This document shows positions 36,885 to 48,865 of a DNA stretch of 64,000 nucleotides, piece by piece; position 1 is the stretch's first letter; each line of letters opens with the position of its first letter. Position numbers and translations under genes: made by a program. The notes beneath the pieces are model-generated. The model was given only the letters and a program-made list of their open reading frames with translations. It was not told the DNA's origin and did no database searches. The stretch comes from an uncultured Lachnospiraceae bacterium (GTDB lineage: Bacteria > Bacillota > Clostridia > Lachnospirales > Lachnospiraceae), in NCBI GenBank assembly GCA_947165275.1, contig CAMUZQ010000005.1:15110-79109 (forward strand). The letters are read 5' to 3'.

Positions 36885-38405
36885 ATGAATAAAACAGAAA
36901 CACCTTCTGAATATTCAAGCTATGACAGATTTTTACATGAGAACAGGATCAAAATAAACCACTATCTTAATATCGTACTTTTATGCTTCACAGCCGCAGG
37001 GCCTGCTATAGCCTTCGGCATATATGCGGGTGTCTTCCCTGATGTCGGATATATGACCTGTGTCAATATATCCATGACGCTTTTGCTTTTGTCAGTCGTA
37101 CATTTCATCCTTATGAAATTCATTCCGGGATCAGTGGCCACGAGTGTTTTTGCACTTGTTGCCCTGAATCTGCTGCTTGTCTATATGTTTTGCTCCCATG
37201 TCAGCATTTATCTGACATGGTTTCTCATCCCGCTTTTGAGTCTGATGTTCTGTGACAAAAAAATATATATCTTTGCCATCGCATCTAATTATATCTTTAT
37301 GATGATCGCAACCTGGCTTGCCGCCCCGTATTATGCCGCCATGCAGTCCCGGTATGCGACTCCGCTGGCCTTTTTTGTGGACAGAGCGGGGGGCTTCACC
37401 ATAGAGACTCTGGTCATGTTCGTATCAGGATACGCGCTTGGCAGGGTTTCCGTCCGGTATATGCGGGAGCTTATCAGTAATTACAGACAGATACGTCAGC
37501 ACGAGGAGCAGATCCAGGAGCGTATGAGTATCCTTGATTCCATGGCAGAGATCTATGATAATGTGAATCTCATAAATTTCGTCGACAACACGGAAATGTC
37601 CTTAAGGGAGGATAAGCTCGTTCCAAAGCAGATAAATATGTCTGTACAGACCCATACAGCTATGACCAGGAAGCTTAAGGATCATGTCATGCCGGATCAG
37701 GTAGAGGATTTCCTGAACTATACGAATTTAAGAACCATACGGGCAAGGCTCTCCCATAAAAAGATCATCTCGGCAGATTTCATCGATATAGTCAACGGCT
37801 GGTTCAGAGCCCAATATATATCAGTTGACTCAACCATAGACGGTATCCCCAATGTAGTTATCTATACCACCCGAAACATCGACGAGGAAAAGAGAAGGGA
37901 AGAGCATCTGATAAGGATATCTCTCACAGATGAGCTGACACGGCTTTTTAACCGCCGCTGCTATGAGGAGGATATAGCGATATACCGGGAAAAGGGGCTT
38001 GATCCTGATTTCGTTCTGCTTTCTATTGACGTCAACGGTCTGAAGACCGCTAATGATACAAAAGGCCATGCGGCAGGCGATGAGCTGATAAAGGGCGCGG
38101 CCGACTGTCTGGCCGCCTCGGTGGGAAGCCATGGGAAGGCTTACCGTACCGGCGGCGATGAATTCCTTGCAATAGTGCATACGGACGATCCGGGCGCTAT
38201 TCTGGATAATATCCGTGAAAAAACGGAGCAGTGGCACGGGATGTATCTTGACGAGATCTCAATGTCCGTAGGATATGCTGCCTGCAGGGATCATCCCGGC
38301 GCATCCATAGACGATCTGGAAAAGGCCGCTGACGCAAGCATGTATGCGGAAAAAGAGCGTTATTACCGCGAAAAGGGACTGGATCGCAGAAAATCAGGGC
38401 AATAG
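36885..38405 (+). CDS. Membrane-bound diguanylate cyclase (GGDEF)
   Basis: About 6 N-terminal TM helices; DELTRLFNRR, DVNGLKTANDTKGHAAGD and RTGGDEF. Confidence 0.9.
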   Translation: MNKTETPSEYSSYDRFLHENRIKINHYLNIVLLCFTAAGPAIAFGIYAGVFPDVGYMTCVNISMTLLLLSVVHFILMKFIPGSVATSVFALVALNLLLVYMFCSHVSIYLTWFLIPLLSLMFCDKKIYIFAIASNYIFMMIATWLAAPYYAAMQSRYATPLAFFVDRAGGFTIETLVMFVSGYALGRVSVRYMRELISNYRQIRQHEEQIQERMSILDSMAEIYDNVNLINFVDNTEMSLREDKLVPKQINMSVQTHTAMTRKLKDHVMPDQVEDFLNYTNLRTIRARLSHKKIISADFIDIVNGWFRAQYISVDSTIDGIPNVVIYTTRNIDEEKRREEHLIRISLTDELTRLFNRRCYEEDIAIYREKGLDPDFVLLSIDVNGLKTANDTKGHAAGDELIKGAADCLAASVGSHGKAYRTGGDEFLAIVHTDDPGAILDNIREKTEQWHGMYLDEISMSVGYAACRDHPGASIDDLEKAADASMYAEKERYYREKGLDRRKSGQ

Positions 38406-38493: not shown

Positions 38494-39003
38494 ATGAACA
38501 AAAAGTTGATAGCCGTAATGGCAACACTTGCTATCACAGCCATGTCTGTGGTACCCGCATTCGCTGCATCACCTGATATTGAAGCTGCAAAGGCGGCTCA
38601 GGATGCGCGCAATGCAAAGATAGCAGCTGACAAGGAGAGCCTTGCAAATTTCCAGGAGTCCGAGAAGGCCAAGGGTGAGGCTCAGAAGGCTGCAGGACAG
38701 TCTGCATACGAGGCTGCACAGGCAGCGCTTGAGAGCTTCAGGAGCGGCGAGCTTGCCAAGGGTGAGGCTCAGAAGGCTGCAAGCCAGGCAGCTGCAGACG
38801 CAGGAAAGGCTGCAGTAGAGACATTCCAGAAGAGCGAGCTCGAGAAGAGCGAGGCTGCCAAGGAGGCAGGAAAGGCTGCTCTTTCATCAGCTCAGGATTC
38901 CTTAAATTCTTTCTGGTCATCTCAGAAGGATGCTGAGAACGCACAGAATGCAGAGCTTGCAGAGAACCAGAAGAAGGTTAATGCATATCTTTCAAGCCTT
39001 TGA
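38494..39003 (+). CDS. Secreted Ala/Lys/Glu-rich protein with 29-aa helical repeats
   Basis: Sec signal peptide ending PAFA; GCCAAGGGTGAGGCTCAGAAGGCTGCA repeated at 38668 and 38755 (87-nt period). Confidence 0.8.
   Translation: MNKKLIAVMATLAITAMSVVPAFAASPDIEAAKAAQDARNAKIAADKESLANFQESEKAKGEAQKAAGQSAYEAAQAALESFRSGELAKGEAQKAASQAAADAGKAAVETFQKSELEKSEAAKEAGKAALSSAQDSLNSFWSSQKDAENAQNAELAENQKKVNAYLSSL
38632..38979 (+). repeat. About 4 degenerate 87-nt (29-aa) intragenic repeats
   Basis: Units KESLANFQESEKAKGEAQKAAGQSAYEAA / QAALESFRSGELAKGEAQKAASQAAADAG / KAAVETFQKSELEKSEAAKEAGKAALSSA / QDSLNSFWSSQKDAENAQ... Confidence 0.75.
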
Positions 39004-39104: not shown

Positions 39105-39255
39105 ATACGTTTACTTCAAAAAATCATTTTCGGTTTTTCGAAAGCCGCTTTTCGGCGGCAGGCAGACTGCATACAGCAGATGCCTGATATTCAAAAATCA
39201 TTGAATTGGAAACCCCGGTTGTTGTTTCGTCACGGTTTCCGGAATGCAAGGTCAT

Positions 39256-39669
39256 ATGAAAAATTATATTTTGCTGCTTACGCTTTTTATCTGTGCTCTT
39301 ACAGATATGGCAAGCTACAGGATCAAAAACCAGGTCCTGATCTTCTCAGCCGCATGGCTGCTGTTCTTTGAATCTTTTATATATACAAACGGTGATCCCG
39401 TTTCGGATATATTGTCGGCAGGAATCGTTTTTTTGATCTTTCTCCCTTTCTACATGCTGAATCTGGTAAAAGCCGGAGATGTCAAGCTCCTTATGCTCCT
39501 GTCCATGTATACCGGATTGCACGGGATATACAGTATCGCAGGTACAACCGCTGCCGTATCCGCCCTGATCGTCGTCCTTATCAGCTCAGTCTCGCATGAG
39601 CACATTCTGAAAACCAGATATCCGTTTGCCTTTGCTCTTTTACTCGGGGCACTGCCTCTGTGGTATTGA
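39256..39669 (+). CDS. Prepilin peptidase, A24 family (TadV/CpaA-like), copy 1
   Basis: ALTDMASYRIKN and AGDVKLL carry both catalytic Asp; multi-TM; start moved to ATG 39256. Confidence 0.75.
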   Translation: MKNYILLLTLFICALTDMASYRIKNQVLIFSAAWLLFFESFIYTNGDPVSDILSAGIVFLIFLPFYMLNLVKAGDVKLLMLLSMYTGLHGIYSIAGTTAAVSALIVVLISSVSHEHILKTRYPFAFALLLGALPLWY

Positions 39670-39681
39670 AAAGGAGATTCC

Positions 39682-40683
39682 ATGACACACTCTAAAAGCT
39701 CTACTATGGCGATATATTTTGCCGAAATGGATTATCTTGAATGCTTCATGAATTACATATCGGAAAAAAACACCGGCTTCGTTTGCTGCGGCTTCACGAA
39801 AAGCGACAGCCTGAAGGAATATGCAAAGAAAAATCATATAGCCGTACTGCTGACGGATTCCGTCTGCTTTGAGAAGGGCGCGAGACATATAAATTCAGAA
39901 ATGACGGTAGTGCTTACGGAAAGACCGGATACGGAAAATCCCCCGGGAGTGTATACGGTGAATATCCTCCAGCCTGTAGATGAGATACTCCGCGAGATCC
40001 TCAAAACAGCTGCAAGGCTTGACATTACCGTAGCTCAAAGCGTATTAAGCTCATCTCTCAATATATATTCCTTCTTCTCGCCGGTCGGCAGATGCCTGAA
40101 AACGAGCCTTGCCGTAGCTGCAGCCCAGCTCCTGTCCGACCGTGACAGAACTATATATATAAACCTTGAACCGGATTCCGGCTTTTCCGTACTTTTCGGA
40201 CGTGAATACGATACCGATCTTTCGGATCTGATGTTCTACTTAAGAGACGGATCACATGACAGTGCTTCCCTGATGCTCCAAAGCGCTGTATGCGACAGTC
40301 AGGGAATAAGCTATATCCCCTCCGTCATGAATCCGGGGGATCTCTTCCAGATATCCTGTGATGAGCTCATCAGGCTTTTTGATCTGCTTCAGAGCAATGG
40401 CTATAAAAATATAGTACTGGACCTTGGGATCCTGCTTCCCGGATTCGAAAGGCTGCTTGCCATCAGCGAAAAGATATTTATGCCTGTCTTAAATGACAGT
40501 GTATCAGCGGCTAAAACTTCGCAGCTTTTCTCATATTTAAGGACTCTGGAGGATATCCGCATCGAGGACCGTATCCGGAACCTGGAACCGCCGTTTTTTA
40601 AGGATCTTCCGGGTATAGCAGGAAACATGAGGCATACTGAGATAGGAAGATATATGGCCGGTTTTTTATACGGGCCAAGCTGA
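39682..40683 (+). CDS. TadZ/CpaE-like receiver plus ParA/MinD-like protein
   Basis: Receiver-like N-terminus; deviant P-loop SPVGRCLKTS; YINLE and IVLDLG; directly upstream of the CpaF ATPase. Confidence 0.65.
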   Translation: MTHSKSSTMAIYFAEMDYLECFMNYISEKNTGFVCCGFTKSDSLKEYAKKNHIAVLLTDSVCFEKGARHINSEMTVVLTERPDTENPPGVYTVNILQPVDEILREILKTAARLDITVAQSVLSSSLNIYSFFSPVGRCLKTSLAVAAAQLLSDRDRTIYINLEPDSGFSVLFGREYDTDLSDLMFYLRDGSHDSASLMLQSAVCDSQGISYIPSVMNPGDLFQISCDELIRLFDLLQSNGYKNIVLDLGILLPGFERLLAISEKIFMPVLNDSVSAAKTSQLFSYLRTLEDIRIEDRIRNLEPPFFKDLPGIAGNMRHTEIGRYMAGFLYGPS

Positions 40684-40723
40684 GGCTTTCAGATGCGTGC
40701 TATCGGGATAAGCAGGCAGGAGA

Positions 40724-42007
40724 TTGGTTCCCGGGACAGGAGGTATCGGACTTATGGATGCAGCCACGGAAAACAGCAGGGATAACAGCAGATTTCTCCG
40801 ACTTAAGGAGGATGTCATCTCAAGGATAGATATGTCCAGAGATGTCTCAGATGAAGAGATCCGGGATATCATCAGAAATTCCATCTATGAGATGAAAAAA
40901 ACAGAGAATATAAGCCTGCTTGAACGTGAGGAGCTTTTTCAGCTTTTGTTCTGCGAGGTCAGAAGACTCGGTATCCTGGAGGAGCTCGTAGCCGACAGCT
41001 CCGTAACGGAGATAATGGTAAACGGCATAAGCGATATCTTCATTGAGCGCGACGGAGTCATATCAAAATGGGACAGGCATTTCGAATCTGTGGACAGTCT
41101 GCGGTCTGTTATCCAGCAGATCGTCGCCAAAAGCAACCGGATAGTAAATGAAGCCTCCCCGATAGTGGATGCGAGGCTCGAAAACGGCGCAAGAGTCAAT
41201 GTCGTCATGAATCCTGTCGCCATAAACGGCCCGATACTGACCATAAGGCGCTTTCCCGACGATCCGATCACGATGAAGGATCTGATCGGCTTCACCTCCA
41301 TTACGCCGGAGGCAGCCGAATATATGAAAAGACTTGTTGTCTCGGGCTATAACATATTTGTTTCCGGCGGTACCGGCTCCGGTAAGACGACTTTCCTGAA
41401 TGCTCTGTCCGAATATATCCCTTCCACGGAAAGGATAATTACCATTGAGGATTCTGCCGAGCTTCAGATAAGGGGCATTGAAAATCTTGTGAGTCTTGAA
41501 ACGAGAAATGCCAATGTAGAGGGCCTGCGTGAGATATCTGTCAGGGATCTGATAAAAACCTCCCTCAGAATGAGACCCGACCGCATCATAGTCGGAGAGA
41601 TCAGGGACGGCGCGGCATTGGATTTTCTTTCAGCTGCAAATACAGGACACGACGGTTCCCTGTGTACCGGTCATGCAAACAGTGCAAAGGACATGCTCTC
41701 AAGGATAGAAACCATGGTGCTTATGGGAATGGAGCTGCCACTTCCGGCTGTACGACGCCAGATGGCATCTGCCATAGATATCATAGTGCATCTGGGAAGA
41801 CTCCGGGACAAAACCCGCAAGGTTTTGGAGATCACGGAGATGATCGGTCTTGAAAACGGTGAATTTGTGCTTAATCCGTTATTCAGTTTTATTGAGGAAG
41901 GAGAGACAAAACGTGGACTCATCAAAGGAAATCTCAAAAAAACCGGCCGGCTTTCATTTGTGGAAAAGCTCCAGAGATGCGGCCTTTATGATAAGGATCT
42001 TATTTGA
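40724..42007 (+). CDS. cpaF: CpaF/TadA pilus assembly ATPase
   Basis: TEIMVNG, VDARLENGARV, GGTGSGKTT, IEDSAEL, RMRPDRIIVGEIR and TGHDGS..TGHANS; alternative start 40754. Confidence 0.93.
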   Translation: MVPGTGGIGLMDAATENSRDNSRFLRLKEDVISRIDMSRDVSDEEIRDIIRNSIYEMKKTENISLLEREELFQLLFCEVRRLGILEELVADSSVTEIMVNGISDIFIERDGVISKWDRHFESVDSLRSVIQQIVAKSNRIVNEASPIVDARLENGARVNVVMNPVAINGPILTIRRFPDDPITMKDLIGFTSITPEAAEYMKRLVVSGYNIFVSGGTGSGKTTFLNALSEYIPSTERIITIEDSAELQIRGIENLVSLETRNANVEGLREISVRDLIKTSLRMRPDRIIVGEIRDGAALDFLSAANTGHDGSLCTGHANSAKDMLSRIETMVLMGMELPLPAVRRQMASAIDIIVHLGRLRDKTRKVLEITEMIGLENGEFVLNPLFSFIEEGETKRGLIKGNLKKTGRLSFVEKLQRCGLYDKDLI

Positions 42008-42689
42008 ATGGACAGCGATATGCGCCCTCACGGCATATGTTTTTTACAGAAGCATCCCCGCCTTTGCAATACTTTTTCCGGGTATAGTCCCCTACGCCGG
42101 CTGGAGGACCGCCCAGGCGGAACGCGCCAGAAAAACACTTCTTTCGATGCAGTTCAGAGAAAGCATCCTTGCCGTCAGTACCGCGCTCAATGCCGGATAT
42201 TCCGTTGAAAATTCTTTTATTGAAGCATATCACGACATGAAGGAGATGTACGGGGACGAAGCCCCGATAACTGCTGAATTCTACAGGATAGTATTGCGGC
42301 TGCGTGATAATGAGCAGATCGAATATATAATCCGGGATTTCGGCCGGAGAAGTGAGATAGAGGACATCAATGATTTTGCTGCTGTCTTCGAAGCGGCAAA
42401 ACGGATAGGAGGAGATATGACAAAAATAATCAAAAGAGCCTCAGCGAATATTAGTGAAAAAATCGACGTGAAAAGAGAAATAGAAACCTCCATGAGCGCC
42501 AGAAGGCTGGAGCTTCGGGTAATGGAGGTCGTTCCCTTCGGCATCCTGCTGTATCTGCAGACCGGCTCCTCAGATTTTATCTCCATACTTTACAGTGGGA
42601 TCACAGGAAGAGTGCTCATGACCTCAGCGCTGGCAGTATACCTTGCCGGAGTGTTCATGGCTGAGAGAATAATAAATATAGAGGTCTGA
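41988..42689 (+). CDS. TadB-like T2SS-F family platform protein
   Basis: QFRESI..ALNAGYSVENSF and GGDMTKII; C-terminal TM hairpin; start moved to ATG 41988. Confidence 0.8.
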   Translation: MIRILFEWTAICALTAYVFYRSIPAFAILFPGIVPYAGWRTAQAERARKTLLSMQFRESILAVSTALNAGYSVENSFIEAYHDMKEMYGDEAPITAEFYRIVLRLRDNEQIEYIIRDFGRRSEIEDINDFAAVFEAAKRIGGDMTKIIKRASANISEKIDVKREIETSMSARRLELRVMEVVPFGILLYLQTGSSDFISILYSGITGRVLMTSALAVYLAGVFMAERIINIEV

Positions 42690-42691
42690 TC

Positions 42692-44038
42692 ATGAAGCCC
42701 TTTTACAGACTGGCTGAAATGATCCTCAGATATTTCACGCCAAAAGAAACAGAATATGTGAGAGAGAAGCAGATGCTCATGCATCCGGGTGAATCCGGTG
42801 CCAGACTGACCAGAGATTACTTTATCAAAAAGATCGGTACAGTGATCGCCATCACCGCAGCCGGGATCGTACTGTCAACAACGGTGCTGATCGCAGATAT
42901 AAGAAGCTCCCGGCAGATAACTGAAGGCAGTATAGAAAGAAACAGCTATGGCGAAGGTGAAAGATCTGTAACTCTGGATCTGTATAAGGACGGAGAGCTC
43001 TTTCAGAGAGAAAAAAAGATCGTGATAGATGAGAAGCATTATACCGGGGATGAGATCCAAACCATCTTTAAAAAAACAGCCGAAGAGATCGAGGTATCCC
43101 TGTTGGGGGAAAACACCTCCCCGGATCATATAGACCATGATCTTATCCTTCCTAAAGGATCTGAAATCTATCCGGTTTCTGTAGAATGGCTCATAGGAGA
43201 CTATGATGCTCTGGACAGCTCGGGACATATCCAGGACAGCTTTCATGATGAGGCAGGAAGAGAGGTAAAGCTTACGGCAGAGCTGTCGTACGGCTCTATG
43301 TGCGAGGATCATGTTTTCTATGTAAAGGTCTACCCGAAATACCGCGAAGCAGATGACAGGCTCTCGCATGACATAGACAGATCCATCAGCGAATATGCCG
43401 TAAACTCTGCCAGTCAAAATGCCCAGCCGCTCCCGGATACAGTCGACGGCTATCACATATCCTACAAAAGATCACTGCCCCATACCTGGATCTGGATACT
43501 TATGACAGCAGGGCTCGCAGGATTTGCGGTCTATACAGGAAAAGACCGGGATCTGAAGGCAGAGGTCACAAAAAGAGAACGTGAAATGCTTTTGGACTAT
43601 CCTGAAATCGTAAGCAAACTGACGCTGCTCATCGGAGCCGGGCTGACCCTCAGATCAGCATTTGAAAAGGTTGCTTCCGACTACAAAAACCGCACCTATG
43701 GCAGGAAATCCTATGCCTGCGAGGAAATGCTCATTACAGTACATCGTATGCGAAGCGGCATAAGCGAGTATGAAGCCTATCTGGACTTCGGAAAAAGATG
43801 CGCCGTGAGACGGTATACCAAGCTCGGCGCCTTATTCTCCCAGAATATAAAGAAGGGAAGCTCCGGTCTTCTGGCCGAGCTTGAAAAGGAAGTAAGGGAC
43901 GCGTTTGAGGAACGCAAGGCAAATGCAAGAAAAAGAGGAGAGGAGGCAGGTACAAAGCTTCTCCTGCCAATGGCAATGATGCTCTCCGTAGTAATGATAA
44001 TAATAATAGTTCCGGCTTTTATGGCTTTTTCATTATAA
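42692..44038 (+). CDS. TadC-like T2SS-F family protein with a large extracytoplasmic insertion
   Basis: TM, ~200-aa soluble segment, TM, then DYPEIVSKLTLLIGAGL and GEEAGTKLLLPM. Confidence 0.8.
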   Translation: MKPFYRLAEMILRYFTPKETEYVREKQMLMHPGESGARLTRDYFIKKIGTVIAITAAGIVLSTTVLIADIRSSRQITEGSIERNSYGEGERSVTLDLYKDGELFQREKKIVIDEKHYTGDEIQTIFKKTAEEIEVSLLGENTSPDHIDHDLILPKGSEIYPVSVEWLIGDYDALDSSGHIQDSFHDEAGREVKLTAELSYGSMCEDHVFYVKVYPKYREADDRLSHDIDRSISEYAVNSASQNAQPLPDTVDGYHISYKRSLPHTWIWILMTAGLAGFAVYTGKDRDLKAEVTKREREMLLDYPEIVSKLTLLIGAGLTLRSAFEKVASDYKNRTYGRKSYACEEMLITVHRMRSGISEYEAYLDFGKRCAVRRYTKLGALFSQNIKKGSSGLLAELEKEVRDAFEERKANARKRGEEAGTKLLLPMAMMLSVVMIIIIVPAFMAFSL

Positions 44039-44185
44039 CTGCCGTCAGCAGCCGGCGTGGTCGTAAGTATTTCAGTTTCAAATTCCATATACCCCGGAAC
44101 ACGTCCCTGACAGGAAGTCTGTTCCGTTTACAGGTATAAATACAGCATGACGGCATTCCATGTCATGTGGAAAGGAGGAGATGCC

Positions 44186-44356
44186 ATGTTGAAGACCATA
44201 AAAAGGTTTATCAGAGAGGAAGACGGTATCGGGACAGTCGAAATGATCCTGATCCTCGTGGTTCTTATCGGTCTCGTACTGATCTTTAAATCACAGCTTA
44301 CCGATCTGGTAAACAAAATCTTCAAAACCATAAACACCAAAGCAGGGCAGGTCTGA
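44186..44356 (+). CDS. Flp-type (type IVb/Tad) major pilin
   Basis: REEDG|IGTVEMILILVVLIGLVLIF (G-1, E+5); 56 aa; AGGAGG RBS. Confidence 0.88.
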   Translation: MLKTIKRFIREEDGIGTVEMILILVVLIGLVLIFKSQLTDLVNKIFKTINTKAGQV

Positions 44357-44373: not shown

Positions 44374-45801
44374 ATGAAATACAGGTATAAAGGCACGATC
44401 ACAGTTTTTCTGAGCCTGATACTGTCGCTCATACTCTCTTTGATATTGAGCATAACGGAAAGCGCCGCCTATGCGGCATCAAGAATGAAATGTGAATTAG
44501 CGGCAGATCTGTCGCTGGAATCCGTATTCGCTGAATACAACAGAGAGCTTCTAAGCCGGTACGACCTGTATTTCATCGATACCTCATACGGCGGTCCTGC
44601 TCCTTCCTTAAATGAACTGAAGGAGCATATGAAGGATTATATAAGCTACAATATAGATCCCTCAAAGGGCACCTTCTCCATCATATCCCCTGCCGATTTT
44701 ACGGCTCTTAAACTTGAATCTCTGGATATCGCAGAAGCCTCATACGCTTCAGATGCGGCAGGAAGAGTCTTCAAAAGACAGGCGATCCAGGCCTTTGAAG
44801 ACCTCCACGGGATAAGCGCCGCCAAGGCTCTTGCAGGAAAAGCAGGGGCTTTGATCTCGGATTACAACAGCAGCGGGATAGAGGATGAGGATCCGGACGA
44901 ATACCGCAAGCAGCTGGAGCAGGAGCTGAATGATATAGATTATAAGATATCCGACAACCCCGCAAGAAATGCCTTCGACGACAGAGAGGGGATCTTAAGA
45001 CATGTGATGAATACACATTCGATCTCTGACAGGACTATCGATACGTCAGCCCTTATCTCCCACAGGAGCATAAACCGGGGTACGGGAATACATGGCGGGA
45101 ACGTGGATACAGAAAGCATGCTCTCCGAATTGATGTTTGACGAATATCTGATGGACAAATTTACCTCCTATACTGATGAACACTCCGGTGAAGCTGCGGA
45201 ATACGAGCTCGAATACATCCTCTACGGCAAAGCCTCGGACAAAGCGAATCTGAGAAAAACCGTGGAGAAGATAATGCTTTTGCGATACGGAGCGGATGCC
45301 GCTTTCATATTCACCGACGCGGAAAAAAAGAGCTGCGTAGAGGCCATCGCCACTGTGATCTGCACCCTTCTTTTAGTTCCCGAAGCTGCCGATGCCCTGA
45401 CAGACCTGATCCTTCTGGCCTGGGCCTATGGCGAGAGCGTATCCGATACTGTACGGCTGCTGGCAGGGGAAAGAGTCCCTCTTACAAAAAACAGCAGTGA
45501 CTGGAAAATGCCGCTGTGGGGACTGATATCCATAAAGGCAAATGCCAGACCCACAGGACAAAAAGGCACCGGCTTTTCATACGAGGATTATCTCAGGGTT
45601 TTTCTTGCAGTCGAAAACAAAACCACAAAGTGCATGCGGGCCATGGACGTGATCGAAATGAATCTGCGTCAGACGGAGGGCAACAGAAATTTCCGTATGG
45701 ACGGCTGCGTAGAATACGTAAGCATGAGTGCAGTAATGACCTGCAGAGGCAGATACAGACTTTTCATAGACAGGAAAATGAGCTATTTAAGTGACTTTTG
45801 A
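44374..45801 (+). CDS. Large TadG-like pseudopilin (DUF5702-like)
   Basis: KG|TITVFLSLILSLIL prepilin-like start; ELEYILYG..D..NL and YEDYLRVFL motifs. Confidence 0.7.
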   Translation: MKYRYKGTITVFLSLILSLILSLILSITESAAYAASRMKCELAADLSLESVFAEYNRELLSRYDLYFIDTSYGGPAPSLNELKEHMKDYISYNIDPSKGTFSIISPADFTALKLESLDIAEASYASDAAGRVFKRQAIQAFEDLHGISAAKALAGKAGALISDYNSSGIEDEDPDEYRKQLEQELNDIDYKISDNPARNAFDDREGILRHVMNTHSISDRTIDTSALISHRSINRGTGIHGGNVDTESMLSELMFDEYLMDKFTSYTDEHSGEAAEYELEYILYGKASDKANLRKTVEKIMLLRYGADAAFIFTDAEKKSCVEAIATVICTLLLVPEAADALTDLILLAWAYGESVSDTVRLLAGERVPLTKNSSDWKMPLWGLISIKANARPTGQKGTGFSYEDYLRVFLAVENKTTKCMRAMDVIEMNLRQTEGNRNFRMDGCVEYVSMSAVMTCRGRYRLFIDRKMSYLSDF

Positions 45802-45844: not shown

Positions 45845-46612
45845 GTGATAATTATGAAACTGACAGTAAAACAGAAAAAAGAGATATCAAAAATTCATAC
45901 TCCTGAAAATTCCCCTCCAAAACCCGGGAGGCCCCTTCCCGGCAGCATTACGCTGGAAACAGCCCTTGTACTGCCTGTTTTTCTCTTTGCCATGCTTTCC
46001 GTAATATATATCATCGACGCTATACGGATCTCGTCCGAGAATACCGAAAAGCTGGCGGAAAAGGCCTGTAAATACGCGAAATATGCCTATATAGGAGAAA
46101 GCCTCACAGATGATACCGCATTATCCGACGCCATAGATATGATAAACGGCGGAGATGATATCATTGACCTGGTCAGGCGGTATCGTATCAGTGTTCCATT
46201 TGACCTTCTTAATACCTATGATCCGTATGCACTGGACAGAGTAAGGGTACGCGCCTTTACAGGATACGATAATTCGAAGCACGCAAAATGCAGTGATGAG
46301 GCTGATGAGGATACGGTATATGTAACAGAATACGGCTCCGTATACCACAGATCATTAGGCTGTTCGCATCTCGATCTGAATATCCGGTCCGTGGATTACG
46401 ACAAGATCTCCATGGAGCGGGCAAATGACGGTTCCAGATACCATGCCTGTGAATACTGCTGTCAACCCGGATCACGCCCTTCTTCCGTTTATATTACGGA
46501 TGACGGGAACAGATACCACTCAACTCTGTCCTGCGGCGCCCTTAAAAGAACCATAAACGAAGTATCCTTATCGCAGACAGCTCTGCCTGCCTGTAAAGAA
46601 TGTGGAGGTTAA
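45845..46612 (+). CDS. TadE-like pseudopilin with tandem Cys/His zinc-ribbon C-terminus
   Basis: G|SITLETALVLPVF; two YH..C..L...CxxC modules. Confidence 0.75.
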   Translation: MIIMKLTVKQKKEISKIHTPENSPPKPGRPLPGSITLETALVLPVFLFAMLSVIYIIDAIRISSENTEKLAEKACKYAKYAYIGESLTDDTALSDAIDMINGGDDIIDLVRRYRISVPFDLLNTYDPYALDRVRVRAFTGYDNSKHAKCSDEADEDTVYVTEYGSVYHRSLGCSHLDLNIRSVDYDKISMERANDGSRYHACEYCCQPGSRPSSVYITDDGNRYHSTLSCGALKRTINEVSLSQTALPACKECGG

Positions 46613-46613
46613 A

Positions 46614-47030
46614 ATGATCCCTCTTTTGTTATTTCTGATACTGGGAACCGTGTCTGATATAAAAAACCGAAGCATTCCGGCAATATTCTTTCTGATCTTT
46701 GGCATGCTGGGACTTCTGGAATATATGCTTTACGGCAGGACTGCCCTGATAAATGAATTAATGGGGATAATACTCGGTATTGTTTTTATCGCGGTATCTA
46801 TCATATCCGAAAACAGGCTGGGAATGGGAGACGCCCTGGCGATCCTTGTAACAGGGGTTTTCCTCGGTGGCATGGAGGCCTCCTGTGCCCTCCTTTGCGC
46901 GATGCTTATAAGCGCCTTTTTCTCTGTCATCATTCTGGCTCTTCATAGGGGTGACCGCTCTACGGCTCTTCCCTTCATACCCTTCCTGCTGGCCGGATAC
47001 ATTCTTGAAAAGCTGGGAGCTGCAATATGA
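46614..47030 (+). CDS. Prepilin peptidase, A24 family, copy 2
   Basis: VSDIKNRSIP and GMGDAL carry both catalytic Asp; LPFIPFL; GGAGG RBS before ATG 46614. Confidence 0.8.
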   Translation: MIPLLLFLILGTVSDIKNRSIPAIFFLIFGMLGLLEYMLYGRTALINELMGIILGIVFIAVSIISENRLGMGDALAILVTGVFLGGMEASCALLCAMLISAFFSVIILALHRGDRSTALPFIPFLLAGYILEKLGAAI

Positions 47031-47482
47031 GAAGGCATCTTAAAGCATCCTGTACAGTAGAGGCGGCGCTGATCTTTCCTTTTATCATGGGCATTATAGT
47101 GTTTATCATCTATATTTCCTTTTTCCTTCACGACAGGGCTGTCATGAAGAGCTGTGCATATCAGGCGGCATTGAAGGGAAGCCTGATACGGAGCAGTACC
47201 TCCGAAATGGAAAATGCGGCACGCAGAGCAGCTGAATATAATATCGACGGCCTTCTGCTGGCAACTGCGGATCTCAATACCGAGGTGGCTGTATCCGGGA
47301 AGGAGATAACAGTGTCATACAGAGGAAATCTGCGGATCCCGCAGGGGATCCTTTTCATGAAGATAACCGGGACTGACAGTATAGAGGTCTCGGGCGAAGC
47401 CAGCGCATACCAGAAGGATGCGATAGAATTCATCAGAAAAAGCCGGACAGTCACAAATTCATTGAATCATGCCGGAAAATAA
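47027..47482 (+). CDS. TadE family pseudopilin
   Basis: KA|SCTVEAALIFPFIMGIIVFII. Confidence 0.8.
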   Translation: MRRHLKASCTVEAALIFPFIMGIIVFIIYISFFLHDRAVMKSCAYQAALKGSLIRSSTSEMENAARRAAEYNIDGLLLATADLNTEVAVSGKEITVSYRGNLRIPQGILFMKITGTDSIEVSGEASAYQKDAIEFIRKSRTVTNSLNHAGK

Positions 47483-47497
47483 TATGGAGGTTAGAAA

Positions 47498-48865
47498 ATG
47501 CAGATCACCTATAAAAGAAACGGCCTTAAGAACTATATGATCATAAGGAATGAAAAGGACGGCTCTCCGGGCCTTCGCGAAAAAATGATAATACGTAATA
47601 AGATCAGACATCTTGCAAAAATGACTCCCCAGAGCATCGACGGCAAAACCTATTACTACTACGATATCCAGGGCAGAGTAAATCTTGAGGCTCTTTTTAC
47701 CGGACGCTGCTTTAAGGCTGACGAGCTTCGGGCAATACTTAAAAGCCTGTCAGAAATGCTGTACGAGCTTCAGCGGTATATGCTCTCTCCTGATGAGGTC
47801 ATTTTTTCTCCCGGTGCTGTATGGCTGTCCCCTGATACTCTTGAGCCATCTTTTATCTATGTGCCGGAAATGCTGCCTGATGAATGCTGCAGCATAAGAC
47901 TGCTTGCACAGTTTTTCACGGAACATGTCGACGGTGAAGACCGTGAGGCCGCTTCCATGGCTTATGAATATCTTGAGATGGTAGAGAACGGCTATATCAT
48001 ACCAGATGTCAAGGAGCCGCAGCCGGATTTTTGCAGGACTGATGAGACGCCGCCCATCGACCCCGATGATTACTGGGATCTGAAGGAGGGCATAGCTGAT
48101 GAGATGAAACCCTTCTTTGAGGATAACGGGCCGGACAGGCAGGCGGACCGCAGGGCAAAAACGATCCCTGCTGTCATATGTCTTGGTACGGTCATCGTCG
48201 CAGCCGGCATATATATCGCTTTTGTCCTGAGACCGGATCTGTTTCCCGTGATCCTGTCCGATGAAGAATATATGATCGCGGGTGCAGGCATAGCTGTCGC
48301 TTTTGCGCTTGTCCTTACAGGCGTGATCTATATGTTCGGAAAAAAGAACGACAGTGAAGGGAATGAGGGGAATGAGGGGACCGATCTCTCCGGAAATGAC
48401 CCTTCTCCGGCAGAGATGACCTATTCCGGACAGAATGAGGAGATATATGCAGACCGGGAGTATTCTGAAAAAAAAGATCCGGCAGATGAAAAAACCGTAC
48501 TGCTGAAAAGAACCGGTTCTTTTTCCCCTGCCGGCAGATATCCCATGCTGAAATATGATGACGGAAGACATGTTATCATCCGGCGTTTTCCATTCATAAT
48601 GGGAAAGATGAAGACCCGTGTGGATGAAGTCATAGAGGGTGAAGGGATCAGCCGTATACATGCCATGATCAAAGAACAGGATGGATTCTATTATATATCC
48701 GATCTGAATTCCCTCAACGGAACCGGTGTAAACGGCAAAATGCTCGAAGCAAACGAAACTGTGGAGATATCCAGCGGAGATATCATATCCCTGGCGGATA
48801 CGACTCTGACCTTTCAGGCTGCAGCACCTGAAAAACCTGTGCCGGATAATAAATGCAGACAGTAG
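47498..48865 (+). CDS. DUF6382-like N-domain, TM hairpin, FHA domain protein
   Basis: C-terminal FHA (ISRIHA, DLNSLNGTGVN); two TM helices; N-terminal kinase-like segment. Confidence 0.75.
   Translation: MQITYKRNGLKNYMIIRNEKDGSPGLREKMIIRNKIRHLAKMTPQSIDGKTYYYYDIQGRVNLEALFTGRCFKADELRAILKSLSEMLYELQRYMLSPDEVIFSPGAVWLSPDTLEPSFIYVPEMLPDECCSIRLLAQFFTEHVDGEDREAASMAYEYLEMVENGYIIPDVKEPQPDFCRTDETPPIDPDDYWDLKEGIADEMKPFFEDNGPDRQADRRAKTIPAVICLGTVIVAAGIYIAFVLRPDLFPVILSDEEYMIAGAGIAVAFALVLTGVIYMFGKKNDSEGNEGNEGTDLSGNDPSPAEMTYSGQNEEIYADREYSEKKDPADEKTVLLKRTGSFSPAGRYPMLKYDDGRHVIIRRFPFIMGKMKTRVDEVIEGEGISRIHAMIKEQDGFYYISDLNSLNGTGVNGKMLEANETVEISSGDIISLADTTLTFQAAAPEKPVPDNKCRQ

Follow-up and report, generated by a model that had tools for sequence, protein, structure and literature searches.

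Tandem Ada-like zinc modules predicted on a TadE-like minor pilin of the Lachnospiraceae Tad/Flp operon

What could a pair of predicted zinc modules be doing at the exported end of a pilus subunit? The question is raised by a gene at 45845..46612 (+ strand) of a 64,000-nucleotide stretch of DNA from an uncultured Lachnospiraceae bacterium (contig CAMUZQ010000005.1, assembly GCA_947165275.1), the whole of which is referred to here as the window. Lachnospiraceae are among the most abundant bacterial families of the gut and rumen and, to our knowledge, little is understood of what lets them adhere to mucus or fibre, to other cells or to DNA. A first-pass annotation had described the gene product as a pseudopilin with two tandem YH-C-CxxC modules, likened them to Ada-like metal-binding modules on secreted nucleases and ComEC-associated proteins, and supposed that the pilus tip may bind extracellular DNA (eDNA). 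Here we show that the gene lies in a co-oriented 11-gene monoderm Tad/Flp operon, as established by Pfam scans of the window proteins, and that its modules are predicted relatives of the N-terminal zinc domain of Ada. The best overall explanation, which we consider probable, is a modular minor pilin of a Gram-positive Tad/Flp (type IVc) pilus with metal-stabilised ADA_N-like heads.

The gene encodes 255 amino acids (aa) when read from GTG 45845, but ATG 45854 is the likelier start because the closest homologue (P0001, 98% identity to the target protein) is 252 aa long. A homologue search with the target protein gave 150 homologues, eight of which carried a precomputed PF07811 (TadE) assignment, and their source names point to the family Lachnospiraceae. 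The gene and its parts are laid out as follows (a slash marks the predicted cleavage site here and below).

45845..46612, + strand: target gene for a modular, TadE-like minor pilin of 255 aa (GTG 45845) or, more probably, 252 aa (ATG 45854)
45845..45943, + strand: leader peptide of basic character, aa 1-33, up to the G33/S34 site predicted for the prepilin peptidase
45944..46264, + strand: pilin moiety, in which aa 35-80 form the hydrophobic alpha-1 helix and aa 98-136 a small beta-sheet, with a conserved RVRVRAFTGYD at its end
46265..46312, + strand: acidic flexible linker, aa 141-156, computed net charge -4; predicted local distance difference test (pLDDT) score below 50 at residues 148-150
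46313..46465, + strand: ADA_N-like zinc module 1, aa 157-207, predicted ligands H168 (46346-48), C173 (46361-63), C202 (46448-50) and C205 (46457-59)
46484..46609, + strand: ADA_N-like zinc module 2, aa 214-255, predicted ligands H225 (46517-19), C230 (46532-34), C250 (46592-94) and C253 (46601-03)

The N-terminus reads ...KPGRPLPG/SITLETALVLPVFLFAMLSVIY, i.e. a basic leader, a glycine, a glutamate at +5 and a hydrophobic helix, and thus carries a class III signal, LPG/SITLETALVLPVFLF (motif LPG/SITLE), in which Glu38 occupies the +5 position. Among 32 aligned homologues (31-81% identity) S34 and E38 were invariant and position 33 was either G or A, and the same spacing at the cleavage site was found in the operon's Flp (G/IGTVE) and in its second TadE (A/SCTVE). 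The Pfam TadE model (PF07811) matched residues 33-54 of the target below its threshold (17.0 bits against a cut-off of 22.9, E 0.0063), whereas the homologue P0179 cleared the same cut-off with 23.6 bits. An AlphaFold2 model based on the family alignment gave a long helix (35-80) and a three-stranded sheet (98-100, 106-114 and 128-136), followed by a linker of low confidence and two confident C-terminal modules; A137, T139 and G140, at the end of the pilin moiety, were conserved in the 32-homologue alignment. The protein is thus modelled as a modular pilin, a concept already established (PMC6916266), with a pilin core at aa 34-140, a low-confidence acidic linker and two high-confidence C-terminal modules, which are known as stand-alone domains on other proteins too. 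A Flp pilin, a TadA ATPase, TadB/C and an A24 prepilin peptidase surround the gene. Judged by its sequence, the target protein is a Tad/Flp minor pilin (TadE-like pseudopilin), and the pseudopilin identity originally proposed was upheld by the class III signal, the helix-and-sheet model and the Tad/Flp locus. Cleavage by a prepilin peptidase would occur after G33, and the topology of class III signals would place the C-terminus outside the cytoplasm.

The two modules, TVYVTEYGSVYHRSLGCSHL...RYHACEYC and SVYITDDGNRYHSTLSCGAL...PACKECGG, align to each other with a BLASTP E value of 6e-07. In the same 32 homologues the residues V158, G164, V166, Y167, H168, C173, R192, Y199, C202 and C205 were invariant in module 1, and G221, Y224, H225, C230, R235, C250 and C253 in module 2; with all 64 module copies in one alignment, no variation was seen at the positions G, Y, H, C, C and C. 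The putative ligand set of each module is one His and three Cys, in the order H-x4-C ... C-x2-C. Because of the BLASTP self-match and the invariant ligand columns, the pattern is read as a conserved internal duplication and not as chance; the strings quoted in the first-pass annotation are indeed present in the + strand open reading frame (ORF) 45845..46612, and the duplication that it described stood. A basic L-K-R motif follows the second ligand of module 2, and module 1 has an insert of about 9 residues that resembles a half-module. An alignment at E 0.002 pairs the extra segment of module 1 (46424-46459, aa 194-205; NDGSRYHACEYC) with DDGNRYHSTLSC, where module 2 begins, and module 1 may hold the remnant of a third half-module. 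In the homologues P0039, P0041, P0043, P0046 and P0049 the last ligand pair of module 1 is C-x-C (YYPCSCA), while module 2 retains C-x2-C. A search of the bacterium's own genome found no module copies besides those of the target gene.

Pfam and NCBIfam scans of the target protein and of 41 tandem regions assigned no family to the modules, the sole recurrent match in the 41 regions being a weak one to Copper-fist (10/41, E >= 0.04). Their relationship to Ada was instead traced by profile comparisons, in which A2 is the pilin-module profile and A4 the joint alignment of secreted His-Cys3 modules. By hhalign, the pilin modules (A2) matched generic secreted modules with 98.1% probability (E 7e-14) and A4 with 97.4% (E 1.3e-11, 48 columns); the generic modules matched His-Cys3 domains that pass the Pfam cut-off for Ada_Zn_binding (PF02805) with 97.2% (E 3e-11), and the latter matched true Ada with 98.8% (E 6e-17). 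Reversed and shuffled controls scored 6.5-13 as compared to 50.2 in the real comparison, and HMMER comparisons too linked the pilin modules to relatives of Ada_Zn_binding. When A4 was compared with the whole PDB, the sole family matched was the N-domain of E. coli Ada (1ADN/1EYF, 1U8B, 1ZGW and 1WPK; E ~3e-5), with His aligned on Cys38, Cys on Cys42 and CxxC on Cys69/Cys72. A search of 121 genomes with the Ada_Zn_binding model yielded two classes, true Ada N-domains (E ~1e-30) and C-terminal domains of the form YIGNxNSxKFHRPDC...GYxPCxxCxP, which score above the curated cut-off and have His as first ligand. The four-ligand order is thus retained in a variant form, with predicted ligands H-x4-C ... 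C-x2-C against L1-x3-L2 ... C-x2-C, and a model of the modules alone reached a pLDDT of 89 (85-96 in module 1) and a predicted template modelling score of 0.67. Among the zinc ligands of Ada, Cys38 is the methyl acceptor (PMC10814553). At the Cys38 column all pilin modules and all generic secreted modules had His, and because of this replacement the modules are not expected to be sites of alkyl transfer. The modules are therefore taken to be homologues of the N-terminal zinc domain of Ada (ADA_N-like), a predicted relationship that runs through a chain of profiles and is indirect but consistent. The earlier comparison to an Ada-like metal-binding module was borne out by this chain (each link 97-99%) and by the match of A4 to Ada alone in the PDB, although the direct PF02805 scan was blank. 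The matches of A2 to PDB sequences, which were to C2H2 linkers (TGEKPYxCxxCGK) and designed 'Pizza' proteins, were rejected as artefacts of composition or repeats.

How widespread is this pilin? The tandem region was present in 192 of the 201 genomes of the window's family, corresponding to 191/200 genera and to 162/167 high-quality genomes, nearly always as a single copy and in ORFs of ~250-440 aa. A search of 401 genomes across the phylum found the tandem pilin form in this family only. The tandem-module pilin is a core trait of the Lachnospiraceae, as opposed to an accessory gene. Among 1.84 billion representative proteins, 4035 were matched at E <= 1e-3 by a profile built on the 64 module copies. 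The best 150 of these 4035 were mostly pseudopilins of the same design but included two multi-copy proteins anchored by a transmembrane (TM) segment. These two, P0130 (1129 aa) and P0132 (932 aa), are surface proteins with 13-15 tandem ADA_N-like His-Cys3 repeats of the form VYxTxxGxYYHxxxxCSGM...GKxxCPxC, separated by Ser/Thr/Gly linkers. Such an array is an extreme architecture for an ADA_N-like domain, and no mention of it was found in section 2.2 of PMC12353581. The hits P0121, P0122 and P0226, with duplicated stretches, and P0226 and P0253, with the unrelated partners MG2 and ABC_membrane, looked like assembly chimeras and were set aside.

Outside the tandem form, single generic copies of the type VYITxTGxKYHxxGCRYL...A..GYxPCxxCxPP, with H-x3-C spacing, occur at the C-termini of other proteins. 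Their hosts include secreted SNase nucleases, Lactamase_B (metallo-beta-lactamase, MBL) proteins with or without Cu_amine_oxidN1, proteins with Cu_amine_oxidN1 only, one Peptidase_M78 protein, multi-TM proteins and small secreted proteins. The stated occurrence of such modules on secreted nucleases and ComEC-associated proteins is therefore met with in the form of single copies on SNase and on MBL (ComEC-type) proteins, in agreement with PMC12353581. In one genome (G052:C1:1515251-1516231; L056 / L023) a His-Cys3 module stands at the C-terminus of the products of both members of a neighbouring gene pair; the first encodes a 372-aa protein with a Pfam-passing Ada_Zn_binding domain and the second, directly downstream, an SNase with a generic VYxTxxGxKYH module. 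ADA_N-like domains (an ECOD X-group) have been described at the C-termini of secreted Gram-positive proteins, among them C. difficile Cwp27, the secreted ComEC/Rec2-family protein Q187P0, M. tuberculosis ArfC and an LGFP protein, and the authors state their function to be undetermined (Pei, Schaeffer, Cong & Grishin 2025, PMC12353581). Section 2.2 of that paper does not mention a fusion to a pilin, nor was the fusion described in the literature searched on Tad pili, Lachnospiraceae, modular pilins and DUF5702, in which nothing specific was found on Lachnospiraceae Tad pili or on DUF5702. The tandem-module pilin fusion thus seems to be undescribed so far, while the domain class itself was published in 2025.

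The other genes of the operon, all on the same strand as the target gene, are listed below.

39244..39669, + strand: first prepilin peptidase (Peptidase_A24, Pfam E 2.8e-10), the operon's first gene
39682..44038, + strand: assembly core of TadZ-like, TadA, TadB-like and TadC-like proteins (Pfam scans), in the four genes that follow
39682-40683, + strand: TadZ-like; no Pfam match here, TadZ-like_ARD in the homologous locus L066
40724-42007, + strand: TadA ATPase (T2SSE, E 2.4e-54)
41850-42689, + strand: TadB-like (T2SSF)
42692-44038, + strand: TadC-like (T2SSF)
44147..44356, + strand: Flp major pilin (Pfam Flp1_like, E 3.5e-25)
44374..45801, + strand: DUF5702 protein with an N-terminal transmembrane segment (Pfam DUF5702, E 3.5e-83)
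46602..47030, + strand: second prepilin peptidase (Peptidase_A24, Pfam E 4.4e-06), likely start ATG 46615
47027..47482, + strand: second, plain TadE pseudopilin (Pfam TadE, E 1.5e-07)
47498..48865, + strand: DUF6382, transmembrane and FHA protein (Pfam DUF6382 E 2.3e-39, FHA E 1.2e-13), the last operon gene, kept in the homologous locus L067

The DUF5702 gene, whose product is a candidate for a TadG-like partner, lies directly upstream of the target gene, an adjacency kept in L066 and L067. The order DUF5702 - target - A24 - TadE recurs around homologues of 29% and 43% identity from other metagenomes (L066, L067). The final codons of the target gene (GGAGGT TAA) contain the ribosome-binding (Shine-Dalgarno) sequence GGAGG of the second A24 peptidase gene, an overlap suggestive of translational coupling between the two genes. 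The operon has two A24 prepilin peptidases, one at its head and one directly after the zinc-module pilin, a doubling repeated in the 29%-identical locus L066, which may reflect separate processing of Flp and of the pseudopilins. The DUF6382-TM-FHA protein suggests phospho-threonine-dependent control of the Tad system. A GGDEF diguanylate cyclase gene (E 3e-23) at 36885-38405, ~800 bp upstream of the operon and separated from it by one small ORF (38494-39003), is a possible link of pilus expression to cyclic di-GMP.

What, then, may the modules do on this pilus? In the reading that we favour, the class III signal would take the prepilin into the membrane, either of the two A24 peptidases in the operon would cleave it after G33, and the alpha-1 helix would lead to its incorporation in the filament as a low-abundance subunit. 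Since a bulky C-terminal graft would fit the shaft poorly, its most plausible site would be the tip or priming complex, together with the DUF5702 protein and the plain TadE. Each module would probably hold one structural Zn(II) via its His and three Cys, and the two would serve as rigid, metal-stabilised display or binding heads, without alkyl transfer. The best candidates for a ligand would be phosphodiester polyanions (extracellular DNA or teichoic-acid-type wall polymers), because the Ada domain holds on to the backbone of DNA and because secreted nucleases and wall-associated proteins bear the module in single copy; the basic L-K-R motif in module 2 and the invariant R235 count in the same direction. 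The function would most likely be adhesion or target recognition by a core Lachnospiraceae pilus.

Several points weigh against this reading. The target modules are not basic, which weakens the idea of a polyanion ligand: the tandem region of the target has a net charge of -1 (isoelectric point 6.4) and the mature protein one of -10, and the mean charge in the family is ~0 for module 1 and ~+2 for module 2, as compared to +1 to +6 for copies attached to nucleases and MBL proteins and to means of +4.1 for the Pfam-passing domains and +5.2 for true Ada. As regards the link to Ada, direct scanning of the target and the 41 tandem regions with PF02805 gave no match to the pilin modules, the direct comparison of A2 with the Pfam-passing His-Cys3 domains reached a probability of 54%, and the ligand spacing is H-x4-C in the pilin modules but x3 in Ada and in the generic modules. 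Foldseek searches of the PDB with both models gave no match at E < 1, and Ada was not among their hits; such an outcome is not unusual for metal domains of ~45 residues, but it leaves the N-Ada fold of the modules a predicted one. Moreover, zinc binding, cleavage, pilus incorporation and tip location are all features that we infer.

The alternative that survives best, though we hold it to be tentative, is that the modules have no external ligand at all and act as zinc 'staples', by which the minor pilin's globular end would be stabilised, or are needed solely for assembly of the priming complex with TadE and the DUF5702 protein. In an anaerobe devoid of disulfide machinery the staples would be the analogue of the disulfide-bonded D-region of classical pilins. 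The strictly conserved position in the operon would suit such a core component, as would the restriction of invariance to the ligands and a few core residues, with surface charge ranging from -6 to +19 across the family, and the use of ADA_N-like domains as generic C-terminal appendages on many unrelated secreted proteins. On the other hand, the model shows two independently folding modules beyond a flexible linker, which look grafted and not like part of a pilin core, the operon's plain TadE manages without modules, and R235 and the ligand-adjacent L-K-R are conserved beyond structural need.

The DNA-binding tip of the first-pass annotation, i.e. a competence or eDNA-adhesion pilus whose modules bind extracellular DNA and feed ComEA/ComEC, is in our judgement unlikely. 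It can draw on the Ada homologue of the module, which contacts the DNA backbone (PMC10814553), on the fusion of the module to SNase and ComEC-type MBL proteins (PMC12353581), and on Micrococcus luteus, whose transformation is reported to depend on a Flp pilus (as cited in PMC6916266; reviewed in PMC6370729). A Zn(His)(Cys)3 site would also carry a charge of -1, as in methylated Ada, which is competent for DNA binding. The genome does contain comEC and comEA (contig 6) and dprA (contig 79), and no Com pilin motif of the PF07963 type was detected anywhere in it. However, the target gene is on contig 5, so that linkage to these uptake genes or specific co-occurrence with them did not emerge, and their mere presence is uninformative because the comEC, comEA and dprA families were found in 10-11 of 14 control genomes. 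The charges given above, near neutral in the family modules against +5.2 in Ada, also speak against DNA, as does the same module on non-nuclease proteins (Cu_amine_oxidN1, Peptidase_M78 and multi-TM proteins). Besides, Lachnospiraceae are not known to be naturally transformable in general, whereas nearly all of them have the gene. The genome has, furthermore, a second locus resembling a type IV filament system, on contig 58 (L071:4920-8688), with a GspF/PilC-like protein, four small ORFs, of which three or more have a hydrophobic stretch like that of pilins at their start, and an ATPase of the PilT/PilU family (TIGR01420, 401 bits); a separate PilB/ComGA was not found. It is an equally good or better candidate for DNA uptake. 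Somewhat more doubtful still is a specific form of the DNA reading, in which His in place of Cys38 would lock the site in the charge state of methylated Ada and make the tandem modules constitutive binders of the phosphodiester backbone at the Tad pilus tip. If it were true, almost all Lachnospiraceae would have a pilus that captures eDNA, whether for uptake, as nutrient DNA or in biofilms, and the protein would represent a new class of zinc-dependent DNA-binding pilin.

Binding of the modules to the cell's own envelope polymers (peptidoglycan, or phosphodiester polymers of the teichoic-acid kind), by which the pilus or its tip complex would be guided or anchored through the thick monoderm wall and the same module on nucleases and MBL enzymes would be a wall-retention anchor, appears improbable. 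Passage of Tad pili through monoderm peptidoglycan is indeed an open question (PMC6916266), C-terminal placement is common among wall anchors, and the module co-occurs with Cu_amine_oxidN1 domains and, according to PMC12353581, with CW_binding_2 in Cwp27 and with LGFP repeats; but the nuclease-attached copies are basic (+1 to +6) while the pilin copies are near neutral, and a wall-anchored module would impede extension of the filament. Convergence, the pilin modules being an unrelated small Cys/His knuckle or their cysteines lying in disulfides, would suit the blank PF02805 scan, the failure of Foldseek to retrieve Ada, the spurious C2H2-linker matches of A2 alone and the weak Copper-fist matches, but we regard it as very improbable indeed, since each link of the profile chain reached 97-99% with ligand columns in register while shuffled controls failed, Ada was the only PDB family matched by A4, disulfides leave the invariant His unexplained, and the host belongs, by the taxon names of homologues, to a strict-anaerobe gut lineage.

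On the favoured reading of a modular minor pilin, nearly every genus of Lachnospiraceae has Tad pilus genes with the same unusual minor pilin, and one small, easily expressed pair of domains would be the probable determinant of specificity. The pair also offers a tractable test case for the functionally orphan class of ADA_N-like domains. If the domain binds DNA or teichoic acid, this would account for the fact that, across Firmicutes and Actinobacteria, secreted nucleases, ComEC-type MBL proteins and wall proteins bear it.

Compared with known systems, the target protein is closest in its pilin part to the TadE/TadF pseudopilins of Tad (type IVc) pili, such as those of Aggregatibacter actinomycetemcomitans and TadE of Bifidobacterium breve, with which it shares the class III signal with Glu at +5, the shortness of the pilin core and a gene neighbourhood with Flp, TadA/B/C and an A24 peptidase. 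It differs from them in its long basic leader of 30-33 residues, its sub-cut-off Pfam TadE score and a C-terminal graft of ~100 residues made of two zinc modules. In plan it resembles the modular type IV pilins PilB and PilC of Streptococcus sanguinis (concept: PMC6916266, PMC9934059), which likewise join a pilin moiety to a C-terminal functional module and are low-abundance subunits thought to confer binding specificity on the filament; those, however, are type IVa pilins with vWA-like or lectin modules, whereas the target belongs to the type IVc (Tad) pseudopilins and its modules are predicted zinc modules of Ada-like type, with a putative binding role. The minor pilins that bind DNA in competence pili (Neisseria ComP; Com pilus minor pilins, PMC12153270) are alike only in the general idea of a DNA-capturing minor pilin: the target has no relationship of sequence or fold to them and is unlinked to uptake genes, and the known DNA-binding pilins use electropositive surfaces and not zinc modules. 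For a monoderm Flp/Tad pilus required in transformation, M. luteus is the reported precedent.

The modules themselves have two points of reference. With the domains of ADA_N-like type in PMC12353581, to which class the generic His-Cys3 modules on SNase, MBL and Cu_amine_oxidN1 proteins also belong, they share the character of small C-terminal predicted zinc domains, homologous to N-Ada, on extracytoplasmic proteins of monoderms; in contrast to those, the target copies are duplicated in tandem, grafted on a Tad pseudopilin, spaced H-x4-C instead of x3, and enlarged in module 1 by the insert of ~9 residues. With the N-domain of E. coli Ada (N-Ada10; PF02805; PDB 1ADN/1EYF, 1U8B) they share, in the alignment, the order and register of the four ligands, by which ligands 1 and 2 would follow the second strand and C-x2-C would lie at the C-terminal helix. 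They differ from it in that the first ligand is His and not Cys38, so that neither methylphosphotriester repair nor a methylation switch is expected, and in being extracytoplasmic, without an adjacent helix-turn-helix, and of a net charge near 0 as against +5.

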